A stretch of DNA of 64,000 nucleotides from NCBI GenBank assembly GCA_029288725.1, contig JARIGS010000023.1, positions 20,582-84,581 on the forward strand, in the 5' to 3' direction. The notes under the pieces were generated by a model that saw nothing but the letters and a program-made list of their open reading frames with translations, had not been told where the DNA came from and ran no database searches. Within the stretch, counting starts at the first letter, position 1. Each line of letters starts with the position of its first letter. The position numbers and the translations under genes were made by a program. Below are positions 25,613 through 63,201 of the stretch, in pieces. The stretch comes from Candidatus Nomurabacteria bacterium (lineage in GTDB: Bacteria; Patescibacteriota; Minisyncoccia; Phycocordibacterales; UBA9973).

Positions 25613-26413
25613 ATGAGTCTTTATAATACCGAAAAAAAGCATAATAGTCAATCAAATAAGGCTCAAATGTCTGCCGAGGGAGTGATATTGTTCTGGAAAC
25701 AACCAGGCGAGACGTTGGCGGTATTGTTGCGCCGTTTTCGGGAAGAGCGGGGACTTTCTGCCGATGAGAAAGTAACCTATGCCGGACGACTGGATCCGAT
25801 GGCCGAGGGCATCGTGCCGATACTAGTAGGGGAAGCCCGCTTTCAAAAGGATCACCTTATCGGTAAAGCAAAGACCTATGAGGTAGATATATTGTTGGGG
25901 ATTGGTACTGATACGGGGGACATGCTTGGGGTTGCTTCGCCGCGCCATAGCTTTAGCGGAGGAGGGGCTACGGAAAAAAGTGATATTCAAAAGGCCATCA
26001 TCGAACTCTCCCACACCACCGAACTTCCATACCCTCGCTACTCCTCCCGCCCTGTCGACGGCACGCCATTATTTATGCATGCCCGAGCGGGTCGGGCTGT
26101 GACAGTGCCGATTAAGAAGGTCACTATATATAGTATGGAGCTGCTTGGCATTGATGCATTGCCATTATCTACGTTACTCGGTACCGCACAGGATATCATC
26201 AAAAAAGTACAGGGGGATTTTCGACAGGAAGCTATCCTTGAGCAATGGGAAAAGTTAAAAAAAGAAGAGGGAGATACAGCCGCAACAATTGTTCGTATCC
26301 GCACCACCGTTTCATCCGGTACCTATATGCGCTCATTGGCTGAGAGAATGGGGGAGCTCCTCGGCGTGCCAGCATTGGCATATACCATCAAAAGAACTGC
26401 TGTTGAGGAATAA
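25613..26413 (+). CDS. truB: tRNA pseudouridine(55) synthase TruB-like
   Basis: YAGRLDPMAEGIVPILVGEARF (catalytic Asp motif). GC-rich repeat copy embedded at 25934..25973. Start may be the internal Met at 25667. Confidence 0.75.
   Translation: MSLYNTEKKHNSQSNKAQMSAEGVILFWKQPGETLAVLLRRFREERGLSADEKVTYAGRLDPMAEGIVPILVGEARFQKDHLIGKAKTYEVDILLGIGTDTGDMLGVASPRHSFSGGGATEKSDIQKAIIELSHTTELPYPRYSSRPVDGTPLFMHARAGRAVTVPIKKVTIYSMELLGIDALPLSTLLGTAQDIIKKVQGDFRQEAILEQWEKLKKEEGDTAATIVRIRTTVSSGTYMRSLAERMGELLGVPALAYTIKRTAVEE
25934..25973. repeat. GC-rich hairpin-repeat family copy, in-frame inside truB (encodes ...ASPRHSFSGGGATE...)
   Basis: TTCGCCGCGCCATAGCTTTAGCGGAGGAGGGGCTACGG. Shares the words CGCC(A/G)TAGC, TTTAGCG(A/G)AGGAGGG and GCTACGG with the other copies. 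Local GC spike. Confidence 0.55.
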
Positions 26414-26414
26414 T

Positions 26415-26446
26415 AAAAGCCGATGCAATATGCATCGGTCTTTTCT
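26415..26446 (+). terminator. Rho-independent terminator after truB
   Basis: CCGATGCA-ATA-TGCATCGG + TCTTTTCTTTCT. Confidence 0.7.
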
Positions 26447-26457
26447 TTCTCCATAAA

Positions 26458-26652
26458 TCAAGCGGTCTGCCTTTTGCCGGCGTCATTTTCTTTTGAGCTC
26501 ATGGCAACAACGTTGCTGTCGGTCGGTTCTTTTTGAAAATGGACGCCGCGCTCTTCGGCGCTTCTGCCCGGTACGTAACGATTGTTAATTTCTTGGAATA
26601 CTTGTCCCGGGTTCACCCTTGAAACCTTGTTGGGGTCTGTTACTTGTTTCAT
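26458..26652 (-). CDS. Hypothetical small hydrophilic protein
   Basis: ORF MKQVTDPNKVSRVNPGQVFQEINNRYVPGRSAEERGVHF... (the ORF is open up to 26694). No motif recognised. Confidence 0.3.
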   Translation of the reverse strand: MKQVTDPNKVSRVNPGQVFQEINNRYVPGRSAEERGVHFQKEPTDSNVVAMSSKENDAGKRQTA

Positions 26653-26741
26653 GTTAATCAATAATTTATTTTGTCTTATTATTGCACTAAACAAACAAAA
26701 GTCAATGTTTTGGATTAGAGCTTCAGGCGTATACTGGCCTT

Positions 26742-60089: not shown

Positions 60090-60090
60090 T

Positions 60091-60651
60091 ATGAATAACC
60101 ACCATTCACAATCTGGCTTTACTTTAATCGAGACTCTCATCGCTATCTTTATTCTGACCATGACCATTGGCGGGCTGCTTACTCTTGCGGCAAATGGTTA
60201 TTTCTCCGTTCGCTATGCCCGCAATCAGATTACGGCCAACAATCTTCTTCAGGAATCATTGGAGTATGTTCGCAATAACCGTGATACGAGCTTGCAGCAG
60301 GGAGGTGATTGGAATCAGTGGGTGAATGGTTTGCAGGCTGCCGGCTGCATGAGCACCAATGGTTGTACCGTTGATGCCTACAGTACCGCTTCTCCTATTC
60401 GGGCATGTGGCAATACTTGTGAAGCTATGACGTTTTATCCTGATAACGGTCTCTATGGATATGCCGACGCGTCGTACCCTTCAACCGTTCAGCCGATTAA
60501 GCCCCCTTATCTCACGACCTATACTCGCGCCATTACCATTCAGGAAAATACGCCGGACGAACTGACCGTGACCTCAACGATGCACTGGATGAATGGCAAT
60601 GCAAAGCAGACATTGACCCAGTCAGTCGTCATCACTAATTGGCATCTATAA
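60091..60651 (+). CDS. Minor pilin (PilV-like)
   Basis: MNNHHSQSG/FTLIETLIAIFILTM prepilin motif. The ORF is open from 60007. Confidence 0.7.
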   Translation: MNNHHSQSGFTLIETLIAIFILTMTIGGLLTLAANGYFSVRYARNQITANNLLQESLEYVRNNRDTSLQQGGDWNQWVNGLQAAGCMSTNGCTVDAYSTASPIRACGNTCEAMTFYPDNGLYGYADASYPSTVQPIKPPYLTTYTRAITIQENTPDELTVTSTMHWMNGNAKQTLTQSVVITNWHL

Positions 60652-60652
60652 T

Positions 60653-61153
60653 ATGAAGCATTCACGATCACAAAAAAATAAAGGCTTGCCTCGCCAAAGC
60701 GATGCGAAGGCGGGATTTGCGATGTTGTTCACGGTCTTGATCATCAGTGTTATTTTGGCGATTGGGCTTGGTATTTCCGATATCACGTACAAGCAGACTA
60801 TTCTTTCAAACCTGGCCAAGGATTCCCAATTGGCGTTTTATCAGGCTGACTCAGGAGTGGAATGCGGCATGTACTATGACATTACCTCAAACTTTTTCCC
60901 TCGCGGTGTGGCAGGCACTGACGTACCGGCAACGTTGCAGTGCGGCAATGCGTTGCTAGTGCTCGATAGCAGTCAGTTGGGTGCGGCCGATCACTTTGTC
61001 TACAACGAACAGCCGGCCAATCTCAGCCAGCCTTGTTACACCGTTACGTTTGATAAGACTGATCCGGTAAAGGATTCGGTCAGTGCTCGTGGCTTCAGTA
61101 CCTGTACTGCCACGGCTCGTCAGGTGGAACGCGCCCTTAATGTTACCTACTAA
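60653..61153 (+). CDS. PilX-like minor pilin
   Basis: ...[24 protein letters not shown]. Non-canonical F-A-M after the cleavage Gly. Confidence 0.55.
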
Positions 61154-61155
61154 TT

Positions 61156-63201
61156 ATGAACAGTGCTGCGGCAAAGGATCGCTTGGAAAAACTTCGACAA
61201 CAGATCGCTGATCTGCGTTTTCGCTATCACGTTGAGAATGACCCAACGGTGACGGACGATGTCTATGAGTCACTCTTGCGTGAGGCCAGGGCAATTGAAA
61301 AAGAGTTTCCGCAATTTGCCATCACCCAGGAATTTGACCGTGTGGCCGGTGCGCCGTTAAGTGCCTTTACCAAGGTTACCCACGAGAGTCGCATGCTGTC
61401 ACTGAACGATGTTTTTTCAATTGAGGAATTGGAGCAGTGGAGCGCTCGGATGGAGAAGCTGCTCCCTCCTCCGCCAAGGCTACGGCGGGCGAAGCAGGGC
61501 CTTCGGCATCATTATTTTGCAGAGGTGAAATTGGATGGCTTGGCCGTGACCCTTCGCTATGAGCAGGGGAAGCTGGTGCAGGCTGCAACCCGTGGTGACG
61601 GTTTTGTCGGCGAGGATATTACTGAAAATGCGAAAATGGTGCGGACCATTCCATTGCAGCTGACCGCGCCATTTCCTCCGACTATCACTGTCCGTGGCGA
61701 AATCATTATGCGCAAGAATATTCTTGCGAAACTAAATGACATGCAGGCCAAAAACGGCAAACCGGCATTTGCCAATACCCGCAATGCGGCTGCGGGATCA
61801 GTGCGCCAATTGGACCCATTACTGGTGAAAGAAAGACAGCTGGATTTTTTTGCATATGACGTAGTCGCGTCTGACGCGATGATGGAAACTACCATAAAAA
61901 CGCATTCCCAAAAACACGCCCTACTTCGTGCTATCGGCATGCCGGTCGTAGCAGAGGAGGCAGCCAGCGATACGGTTGAGGGCCTGATACCTTTTATAGA
62001 CATGATTGCCAAGAAACGTGACAGTCTTCCCTTTAATATTGATGGCATCGTCATTAGCGTTGATGAACTTGCATTGCAGGATACGCTGGGCATTGTCGGC
62101 AAGGCACCGCGTTACATGGTGGCATACAAGTATCCGGCTGAACGCGTGACGACCATTGTTTCGAACATCACGGTCAATGTCGGACGTACTGGTGTCCTGA
62201 CTCCGCTTGCGCATTTCACGCCGGTGCTCGTTGCGGGATCAACGGTGTCCAAGGCAACATTGCACAATATGGATCAGATTGCCCGTTTGGATATTCGTAT
62301 CGGTGATACGGTGATCATTCAAAAGGCCGGTGACGTTATCCCTGAGGTGGTGCAGGTATTGAAGGATTTGCGCAATGGCAAGGAAAAGAAATTTGTGATG
62401 CCGAAAAAGTGCCCGGTCTGTGGCTTTGCCGTAGAACAGCGCGCTGCTCAAACGAAAGGAGAGACTGTCGCATTTTTCTGTACGAATGACGACTGTCCGG
62501 CCAAGCATACGCGCGGCATGATTCACTTCGTCCACATGCTCGATATTTATGAGGTCGGACCAAAAATTATTGATCGCCTTCAGGAGGAAGGGTTGGTTGC
62601 CGATGCAGGGGATCTATTTGCCCTGACAGAGGCTGACCTCAGTGGATTGGAACGATTTGGTGAAAAGAGTGCCCAGAATATTATCGCGGCTATTGCCGAG
62701 AAAAAAACGCCACCACTTGATCGATTTATTGCATCGCTTGGTATTGCCAATGTTGGAGTGGAAACAGCCCGTGACATCGCATTGCACTTCGGCAGTTTTG
62801 AAAAGTTCTGGAATGCCAAAGCTGAAGAATTTGAAACCATTCCTAATATCGGTCCAGCCGTCGTGCAAAGCATTGATGAGTATCGCTGCAAGGAATCATC
62901 TATCAATCTGATCAAAAAGCTATTTGAGTATGGAGTAGTGCCGCAGGCCCTGAACGTAGTGAAGGGGGTCTTTTCTGGCAAGACCGTTGTTCTCACTGGC
63001 ACCCTCGCAACTCTCAGTCGCGAAAAGGCCAAGGAAATTATTCAGTCCCAAGGGGGCAAAGTTACCGGCAGTGTTTCAGCCAGCACCAGTATGGTCGTGG
63101 CAGGGGAGAAACCCGGCAGCAAATACACCGATGCCCAGAAACTGGGCGTGCAAATCCTGTCCGAAGATGACTTTTTGAAGATAGTGAAGGGTCTGGTATA
63201 G
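61156..63201 (+). CDS. ligA: NAD-dependent DNA ligase LigA
   Basis: KLDGLAV adenylation motif. OB fold. Cys4 zinc finger CPVCG...C..DC. HhH and BRCT ([10 protein letters not shown]). GC-rich repeat copy embedded at 61462..61507. Confidence 0.95.
61462..61507. repeat. GC-rich hairpin-repeat family copy, in-frame inside ligA just upstream of the KxDG motif (encodes ...[15 protein letters not shown]...)
   Basis: CTCCCTCCTCCGCC-AAG-GCTACGGCGGGCGAAGCAGGGCCTTCGGC. This segment is about 9 aa longer than the corresponding E. coli LigA loop. Confidence 0.55.

Follow-up and report, generated by a model that had tools for sequence, protein, structure and literature searches.

The DNA analyzed here is a stretch of 64,000 nucleotides (the window) from the Candidatus Nomurabacteria bacterium assembly GCA_029288725.1 (contig JARIGS010000023.1, positions 20,582 to 84,581 of the forward strand), and its subject is a family of short, GC-rich, imperfectly palindromic repeats scattered through it. 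The window encompasses ribosomal and translation genes, a type IV pilus/type II secretion cluster, ftsH, smpB with tmRNA, recG, ligA, truB, and three tRNA genes. The best named relatives of the encoded LigA, TruB, and RecG proteins are labeled "Candidatus Paceibacterota," "Nomurabacteria," and "Patescibacteria group," and the window is evidently a piece of a Paceibacteria-like chromosome from the candidate phyla radiation (CPR; Patescibacteria). About 11 copies of the repeat are spread from 25.9 to 61.5 kb (~36 kb), 7 or 8 of them within coding sequences or leader peptides of genes that were identified with Pfam; the conserved block of translation genes, at 1–25 kb, contains none.

The family can be recognized by two words. 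The first, a 9-mer, had been counted seven times against about 0.5 expected in a preliminary inspection of the letters and open reading frames (ORFs) of the window (the sequence-only reading); the enrichment stands but the count does not, there being six exact matches to GCTACGGCG on the two strands (at 29539, 32499, 40187, 40240, 58812, and 61479) vs 0.26 ± 0.48 expected from shuffled windows (0 of 100 shuffles reached six). The site at 25934–25973, listed then as an exact match, is a member of the family but carries the variant word GCTATGGCG. The second word, GCGAAGGMGG, has six matches compared to 0.20 expected, four of these located no more than 30 nucleotides (nt) from a GCTACGGCG word; the fifth, at 60704, is part of an incomplete unit found in a pilin-like leader, and the sixth, at 38070 in the Gly/Arg-rich tail of a protein, may be a chance match. 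The two words evidently represent the arms of a single imperfect palindrome, which reads 5'-Y CCGCC TTC GC [loop] GC TAC GGCGG R-3' on one strand (YCCGCCTTCGC-loop-GCTACGGCGGR) and CCGCC-GTAG-C-YTTR-G-CGAA-GGCGG on the other, so that a small stem-loop is flanked by a GTAG "head" and a GAA "tail." In this arrangement, denoted family A, the arms CCGCCTTCGC and GCTACGGCGG pair at 8 of 10 positions, the two mismatches (T·C and C·T) being conserved among units, and enclose a 4-nt loop (YRAR) in the compact copies, for a unit length of ~30 nt. There are three compact copies in the window (25943–25965, 32494–32521, and 61465–61492) and three with both arms and a loop of 15–17 nt (29539–29572, 40161–40195, and 58785–58820); once other genomes are included, loop lengths of 4 to about 36–40 nt are seen. 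A repeat search linked the window copies pairwise, at 88–92% identity over 24–32 nt, and a profile built exclusively from copies found in other phyla retrieved the compact copies with E values of 1.3e-5 (25943), 6e-9 (32494), and 1.6e-7 (61465), so that the dispersed family described in the sequence-only reading is borne out.

The same reading considered all copies to be local GC spikes, which holds for those at 32484, 37924, 40158, 58808, and 61458 (30-nt windows, GC ≥ 0.73) but not, at this threshold, for those at 25934 and 29535. Another spike, at 30317–30359 (GCCGTAGCGGGCGAAGC), was considered as a copy and rejected because it encodes a 14-residue FtsH motif inside ftsH; word searches alone thus yield false copies. 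As a separate observation, the overall GC content of the window is about 46%, compared to 40.5–42.4% in five syntenic stretches from related genomes (L001 and L124–L127), a gap far beyond the contribution of the repeats. Likewise, four strong terminator hairpins (6356–6396, 37963–38011, 44358–44398, and 57900–57938) carry CTACGG/CCGTAGG at the loop, as the sequence-only reading had remarked; they are there, but C(UACG)G tetraloops are an ordinary terminator feature, and the terminators are probably unrelated to the repeats despite the common 6-mer.

The behavior of the repeats is best seen where orthologous sites can be compared. In ligA (61156–63201), the compact unit at 61464–61493 (+) adds exactly 30 nt, in frame, to the loop that immediately precedes the KxDG adenylation motif: in an alignment of 60 LigA orthologues, the 10 extra residues before KxDG occur solely in the window protein, the syntenic relative L001, with 84% identity between the LigA proteins, is missing exactly these 30 nt, and alignment to the solved LigA structures leaves a gap at the same place, just before motif I. 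In L124 and L125, the ligA site holds a different unit, CCCTTCG(A/G)CA(A/G)GCTCAGGG, which belongs to a second family, B, described below. The gene for an amidase/M15 peptidase (31528–32637, +) carries a compact unit at 32484–32525 (−), antisense to the gene, that encodes a 16-residue stretch following the DINPKEN motif. The site after DINPKEN is short and repeat-free in L127, is occupied by a near-identical unit in the sense orientation in L126, holds a family-B unit in L249, and is AT-rich, with no recognizable unit, in L248 (a scan of metagenomes for relatives of this amidase found two close ones).

A third such site lies in and around recG (35652–37895, −). A GC-rich insertion of 60 nt at 37903–37962 (−), with degenerate arms GCCGCGCTAGC ... 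GCTATGGCAGGG, separates the terminator of the gene for an RRM protein from the recG start codon and is missing in L126 and L127; a degenerate copy at 37909–37962 had been noted before, correctly as to place but short of the full extent of this clean insertion. Within recG, the unit CCCGACTTCGCCAGAGGCTACGTCGCGGCGAGG at 36708–36747 (+), antisense to the gene, encodes the insertion DVASGEVGS, which is missing in 57 of the 59 RecG orthologues aligned, being present in the window protein and, in a different form, in the orthologue P0252. This copy, as well as the one at 59481–59522 in a pilin-like leader, had been omitted from the original list, which was otherwise a list of actual sites. The commonest RecG length in the alignment is 721 aa, and the closest relatives are 2–61 aa longer (range 718–782 among the closest 25) because of lineage-specific small inserts; these (DVASGEVGS, LRQAQGK, PPSAQATAGQG, SGAVALAKES, and others) are translated repeat words. 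A hypervariable RecG loop includes one more GC-rich unit, at 36906–36950 (−), with an expanded loop (CCCTTCG-CCGCGTCAGACGCGG-CTCAGGA), which we tentatively assign to family B.

The pilin-like genes present a similar picture. Five such genes, compared across four genomes, contain units in their leaders in a patchy manner, in both orientations and directly before the G/F cleavage site. In the window, the split-loop unit at 58785–58831 (+) makes up most of one leader peptide (MAIVDKHPSFASRFTRRYGAARG/FTLVEML); the orthologous gene has a copy in L001, a copy in the opposite orientation in L125, and none in L124. The leader of the next pilin-like gene contains a degenerate unit at 59481–59522 (+; TCCACCTTCG-TAAAAA-ACTATGGCGAGAC), with a copy at the same place in L124 and none in L001 or L125, and a partial unit at 60680–60716 (−; CTCGCCAAAGCGATGCGAAGGCGGG), before FAMLF in the leader of a pilin-like protein, is present in L124 and missing in L001 and L125. 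A prepilin peptidase is encoded beside these genes (Pfam), and since this enzyme removes such leaders, the inserts they carry would be harmless.

The remaining copies are located in spacers, in truB, and next to a tRNA gene. The split-loop unit at 29535–29575 (−; reverse complement CCCGCCTTCGC-[15-nt loop]-GCTACGGCGAGGC) lies in the smpB/ftsH spacer, directly upstream of a −10-like box, TGTATAAT; L127 has no copy in this spacer, and the window and L126 hold different ones. The compact unit at 25934–25973 (−; reverse complement CCCTCCTCCGC-TAAA-GCTATGGCG-CGGCGAAGC) is inside truB (25613–26413, +), antisense to it, and encodes VASPRHSFSGGGA, part of the loop, of different length in different orthologues, that follows the GDMLG motif; no clean insertion boundary is discernible in truB, where the nearest orthologue is just 65% identical and the loop is hypervariable. 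The longest copy, at 40161–40262 (+), abuts the 3' end of a tRNA-Ser gene and is a composite of a split-loop unit (40161–40195, +), a spacer, and an inverted right arm (40240–40257, −), an arrangement that resembles a dimer of the repetitive extragenic palindromic (REP) elements discussed below. Finally, a possible degenerate copy (CGCCA..GCTATGGCG; no strand assigned), whose membership is weak (E = 27), lies at 33680–33705 in the leader of a tRNA-Ile; among the relatives compared, this GC-rich stretch is specific to the window. The tRNA-Ile itself (33706–33780) has the anticodon TAT, which is kept in L126 and L127 and would read AUA directly, without a lysidine-modified CAT tRNA.

By comparison with these relatives, the copies behave as inserted DNA, gained repeatedly and recently in this Paceibacteria lineage and in either orientation, and the presence or absence of individual copies in related genomes, as checked for the 30-nt ligA and the 60-nt recG-upstream insertions, agrees with the expectation of the sequence-only reading. 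The relatives contain 0–5 copies per 15–22-kb stretch (zero in the 22 kb of L127, 1–5 in the others). The reading frame is kept by the 30-nt (10 aa) ligA insert and also by those in recG, the amidase gene, and truB, and copies are retained in spacers, in cleaved leaders, and, if their length is a multiple of three, in length-variable segments of proteins.

Family B is known primarily from the relatives. Its canonical unit is CCCTTCGACAAGCTCAGGGC, with the arms GCCCTTCGAC..GCTCAGGGC, and its sites are L124 10300–10340, L125 3560–3600, L126 10780–10830, L249 ~20–565, and the window copy at 36906–36950; no stretch of the window matches the canonical sequence itself with 3 or fewer mismatches. The family translates as LRQAQG, PFDKLR, or PSTSSGQ, and in the relatives it is found in those loops of LigA and the amidase that family A occupies in the window. 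The layout of family B appears to be like that of family A, with another outer stem (GCCC/GGGC) and a similar inner TTCG/CTCA core, and this common plan points to a relationship between the two.

The repeat is not peculiar to this kind of genome, for which the sequence-only reading knew of no described element. A scan of 596 Gb of sequence, one genome per species, with the pattern CCTYCGCNNNRGCTAYGGCG produced at least 120 loci; the matches listed come from Acidobacteriota, Verrucomicrobiota, Bacteroidota, Alpha-, Beta-, Gamma-, and Deltaproteobacteria, Planctomycetes-type bacteria, Bdellovibrionota, and several CPR groups. By our estimate, a few hundred matches to the pattern are expected by chance in 596 Gb, so that the match count alone proves nothing. 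However, the flanks outside the pattern are conserved among the matches listed, with C at position −3 in 112 of 127 (88%), C at −2 in 100 (79%), G at −1 in 92 (72%), and G at +20 in 89 (70%), whence most of the genome matches are taken to be true members; the free loop positions of these matches are mainly CAA, TAA, or TGA. The pattern also matched IMG/VR viral contigs, where about half of the matches listed pass a simple family-flank filter, and PLSDB plasmids gave six partial matches only. The same 26–30-nt unit is thus present in many phyla and in viral contigs. One region of a Bacteroidota chromosome is crowded with compact and long-loop copies, in short ORFs only, and the Bacteroidota copies, mostly in short ORFs, are taken as intergenic. 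In other CPR genomes, the unit is found inside a long aminoacyl-tRNA synthetase-like ORF (PSFAKATAGK-WIQDEDTLDTWF) and inside Tgt-like, methylase-like, ProA-like, and glycosyltransferase-like ORFs (identities read from the translations by eye). All-against-all clustering of the ORFs from 120 genome loci with the unit produced no protein family represented in more than 10 loci. Over 12 nt, the unit (on the reverse strand, TGGCGAAGGCGG) is probably identical to a segment of 16S rRNA that is conserved universally (E. coli ~722–733, GGTGGCGAAGGCGGC), a likeness that may be coincidental.

That the unit folds as a hairpin is suggested by several features of the alignment. The arms are kept while the length of the loop varies, in the window as well as in copies from other phyla. 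The outer pair, left free by the search pattern, covaries (T-A 47, C-G 39, A-T 5), and so does the pair that closes the loop (C-G 58, T-A 42); none of 500 shuffles reached the observed covariation score of these two free pairs, and a Fisher test of the outer pair, performed on a closely overlapping set of sequences, gave p = 7e-14. Inverted unit pairs in Acidobacteriota form tight, perfect palindromes, with a strong predicted fold for the inverted doublets (z = −5.5). Essentially all copies contain GTAG or GTRG (CCGCC-GTAG-C), inside an outer GC stem of 5–6 bp and partly paired in the best fold.

These features bring the family close to the REPs, whose superfamilies are distinguished by the tag, GTAG or CGTC, that adjoins a short stem-loop (Di Nocera et al. 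2013, PMC3733652). REP stems are mostly 6–9 bp long (5 bp in one family) and the loops of many families comprise 2–3 bp; REPs form inverted dimers with spacers of 1–100 bp, vary from strain to strain, and, in the GTAG-1/2 type, have a conserved 3-bp tail, and intragenic REPs are known in other phyla, many of them in genes for DNA replication/synthesis and repair (PMC3733652). The repeats described here share with the GTAG REPs, especially the GTAG-1 type of Pseudomonas and Thauera, a GC-rich imperfect palindrome of 20–40 nt that contains GTAG, a very short loop, a short stem, inverted dimers, intragenic copies, and an abundance that differs between relatives. In architecture, the unit resembles a GTAG-type REP whose stem-loop is minimal and lies within an additional GC stem. 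The Pseudomonas putida REP consensus, GTAGGAGCGGGCTTGCCCGCGAAG, starts with GTAG and ends with GCGAAG, like the unit GTAGCTTTAGCGAAG. The GTAG-1 peptide VGAGLPAK of P. putida (PMC3733652) fits this consensus, and by the two together the GAA tail beyond the stem-loop would be another feature in common with GTAG-1. The REP-encoded peptides listed for O. terrae, C. koseri, S. maltophilia, P. putida, and R. baltica (PMC3733652) do not match the unit. Unlike the GTAG REPs, the repeats have GTAG enclosed by the additional GC stem of 5–6 bp, most copies are intragenic, REPs being mostly extragenic, the sequence is common to many phyla, no REP-associated tyrosine transposase (RAYT) was found in the 64-kb window or at ~240 loci, and the CPR host is outside the coverage of PMC3733652.

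We consider it probable that the family is of the REP type, its members being short palindromic repeats that are non-coding and non-autonomous. Under such a scheme, the element would spread as single-stranded DNA hairpins recognized by an enzyme encoded elsewhere in the genome, the likeliest candidate being an HUH/Y1 "RAYT-like" transposase of the kind proposed for GTAG REPs, and selection would then purge the copies that damage genes. Such purging would account both for the lack of copies in the block of translation genes at 1–25 kb and for the repeated hits in the same tolerant loops.

Several observations weigh against this interpretation. The DNA of single units folds no better than shuffled sequences (z = −2.1 to +0.6), and neither does a 109-nt stretch of the long composite copy (z = −0.2); given that the folding energy equals that of shuffles, the hairpins posited in the sequence-only reading are supported by the arms, the variability of the loop, and the covariation. 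As regards the latter, the sequences from other phyla were collected by means of one fixed pattern, so that most pairs could not vary, and subfamily structure may imitate covariation. No Y1/RAYT transposase is encoded in the window (tblastn was negative as well) or in the fetched stretches (~2–15 kb each) of about 240 unit-bearing loci elsewhere; the jackhmmer searches were seeded with the Y1_Tnp protein of L125 and with IS200 TnpA and E. coli RAYT sequences, the last two being unreliable seeds. The only Y1_Tnp gene seen, in the close relative L125 (11486–12256), encodes a 213-aa protein (IS200/RAYT-like) and has the palindrome GTGTTCGTTGCTCGGCAACGAACAC on both sides, in a REPtron-like arrangement; this palindrome is unrelated to the family studied and does not occur in the window. 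In some REP-bearing species, REPtrons are absent (PMC3733652). GTAG is enclosed in the outer GC stem rather than terminal in the palindrome, where the published definition puts it, and a near-identical 26-nt sequence across phyla is unusual for REPs, most of which are genus-specific. No target-site duplication, which the sequence-only reading had held out as a check, and no common target motif was recognizable at the four junctions examined, including those at ligA, at the amidase gene, and upstream of recG; the nearest to a duplication is an imperfect T(T/A)TAC at one junction.

Comparison with other classes of small repeats leads to the same placement. Ogata and colleagues reportedly described the Rickettsia palindromic elements (RPEs) in 2000 as "selfish DNA in protein-coding genes." RPEs are also discussed in PMC3733652 and PMC1779305; the short ones are CGTC-tagged, and RPE-1 is about 100–150 bp long (PMC3733652). 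Likeness to REPs and RPEs, which the sequence-only reading had proposed, is apt: here as in Rickettsia, short palindromes lie in frame in housekeeping genes of a reduced genome, are tolerated by the proteins, and are patchy among relatives. Unlike RPEs, which are confined to Rickettsia and its relatives, the present units are ~30 nt long, contain GTAG rather than CGTC, have no sequence similarity to RPEs, and reside in Patescibacteria. Short GC-rich palindromes that are mobile or recombinogenic, and occasionally found in coding sequence, also include the GC clusters of yeast mitochondria and the hairpin elements of sponge mitochondria; like these, the repeats are GC spikes in a lower-GC genome, sometimes within genes, but the organellar elements have unrelated sequences and no GTAG/GAA architecture. 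Bacterial MITEs, which are miniature transposable elements with inverted repeats (Correia/NEMIS, ERIC, BOX, and Nezha), are usually 50–500 bp long, with terminal inverted repeats that match a parent element and target-site duplications. The repeats resemble MITEs in being small, non-autonomous, and dispersed, with inverted-repeat ends and some in-frame fusion to genes; neither that size, nor parent-matching ends, nor target duplication was seen in the window family, and no parent insertion sequence was found near the copies examined. Thus, the earlier description of a mobile, MITE-like element holds as far as insertion behavior is concerned, but the MITE label is not established. The family is best filed in the REP-like class of short palindromic selfish repeats, as a new addition to that class.

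The most serious alternative, which we nevertheless regard as unlikely, dispenses with a transposase: the host's own replication or repair would spread the GC-rich near-palindromes, through template switching, repair synthesis primed by microhomology, or ectopic gene conversion, and could flip a unit in place. The failure to recognize a target duplication, or a transposase in the window or near ~240 copies, is in keeping with such a process, as are the occupation of the same site by the unit in both orientations or by family B, the microhomology at some junctions (CCTCCG at the end of the tRNA-Ser and, at the amidase site, CC from a Pro codon), and the small genome of the host lineage. However, host-driven copying leaves unexplained the conservation of 26 nt, the two stem mismatches included, across phyla and viral contigs, and the microhomologies amount to only 2–6 nt and are inconsistent between sites.

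Another possibility, and an improbable one, is that the hairpin is a functional element of the host, either an RNA (a terminator, mRNA stabilizer, or processing site) or a DNA site for gyrase, IHF, or a nucleoid protein. Roles of this kind have been proposed for REPs (PMC3733652), and conservation across phyla, covariation at two pairs, and the location of the smpB/ftsH copy directly upstream of the −10-like box would fit. The distribution of the copies speaks against function: they occur in both orientations relative to the gene and mostly in coding sequence, individual copies are missing in close relatives at otherwise conserved loci, and the hairpins are not followed by a T run. Moreover, no Rfam 15 family matched any copy in the window or at six copy-rich loci, at gathering or permissive thresholds; the matches reported were tmRNA, tRNAs, a 6S RNA elsewhere, and sub-threshold noise.

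It is very improbable that the repeat is a selected peptide module, such as a linker or leader motif (e.g., AKAG/F), with the likeness of the DNA following from selection on the protein. Several pilin-like leaders do end in a unit that supplies K/R-G before the cleavage-site Phe, and the PSFAKATAGK frame recurs in several other CPR genomes, but the units of the window are read in different frames and on both strands, some copies are intergenic, and the Bacteroidota copies are mostly in short ORFs; because several frames are used, a peptide function is excluded as a general explanation. Finally, the proposal of the sequence-only reading that the family derives from, or targets, a tRNA 3' end deserves hardly any credence: the left arm of the longest copy does overlap the last bases of the tRNA-Ser (CCTCCG/CCTTCGCC), but L126 and L127 have an identical acceptor arm and 3' end followed directly by unrelated, repeat-free sequence, only 1 of about 11 window copies adjoins a tRNA 3' end, and the ligA insertion carries its own CCTCCTCCGCC arm just as other insertions bring their own CCTCC/CCGCC arm, so that the overlap is best read as coincidence or junction microhomology.

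The tRNA-Ser locus has some further peculiarities. The tRNA (window 40080–40166, L126 7100–7189, L127 7833–7918) has the anticodon ACT, with A34 and the loop TTACTAA (ARAGORN), and differs among the three genomes only in the variable arm. Among bacteria, A34 is unusual in a tRNA-Ser; a normal tRNA-Ser(GCT) is encoded nearby in the window (43696–43783). On the 3' side of the ACT tRNA gene, L127 has an adjoining gene for a large serine recombinase (6136–7845) and L126 has one ~3.4 kb off (2378–3697), the ORFs nearby having few or no Pfam matches, which suggests integrated elements at this tRNA gene in both genomes; at the corresponding position in the window, the repeat dimer is followed by a SET-domain gene instead of a recombinase.

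Two other repetitive features of the window fall outside the family. The two copies of a 60-nt direct repeat (34133–34192 and 34788–34847; 93% identity), spaced 655 nt apart, lie on either side of a 153-aa ORF (34254–34715, −) without a Pfam match; this may be a small duplicated or mobile segment. A 484-aa protein (41682–43136) with many NGGY/NNGYY repeats (repeat families D1 and D12), a weak Big_2 match, and a match to a pilus-assembly N-terminal domain is probably a repetitive surface protein.

A search of the literature by topic and by DNA or peptide words, from which subscription journals were largely excluded, found no account of such repeats in CPR bacteria. Peptides such as PPSLKLRRTS, SYGGQA, SFAKATADK, and LRQAQG presumably occur in many hypothetical proteins of metagenome-derived databases; if so, the element has been seen but apparently not named. 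Beyond the REP-type assignment, we tentatively entertain, as a possibility with the odds against it, that families A and B constitute a single undescribed superfamily of ~25–30-nt hairpins that extends, with conserved arms and inner mismatches, from Patescibacteria to Acidobacteriota, Verrucomicrobiota, Bacteroidota, Proteobacteria, and their viruses, routinely colonizes the coding sequences of CPR bacteria, and is spread either by an enzyme that moves horizontally or by some activity universal among hosts. If so, no REP-like element before it would have been nearly pan-bacterial in range, and the candidate phyla radiation would have its first case of "selfish DNA in protein-coding genes." Two properties of the family are uncommon, namely, heavy in-frame colonization of CPR genes and near-identity across phyla and viral contigs. 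CPR genomes are small and streamlined, yet this one tolerates many apparently selfish inserts in essential genes (those for DNA ligase, RecG, TruB, the amidase, and the leaders of pilin-like proteins), and these inserts account for much of the small-indel variation among the orthologues compared and for odd low-complexity peptides in proteins predicted from metagenomes, such as PSFAKATAGK, AVALAKEG, and LRQAQG. The repeats could be masked or modeled in annotation, alignment, and structure prediction, and the presence or absence of insertions could be used as a fine-scale strain marker. The spread across phyla poses the question of what recognizes the hairpin, one possible route being exchange between episymbiotic CPR cells and their hosts.

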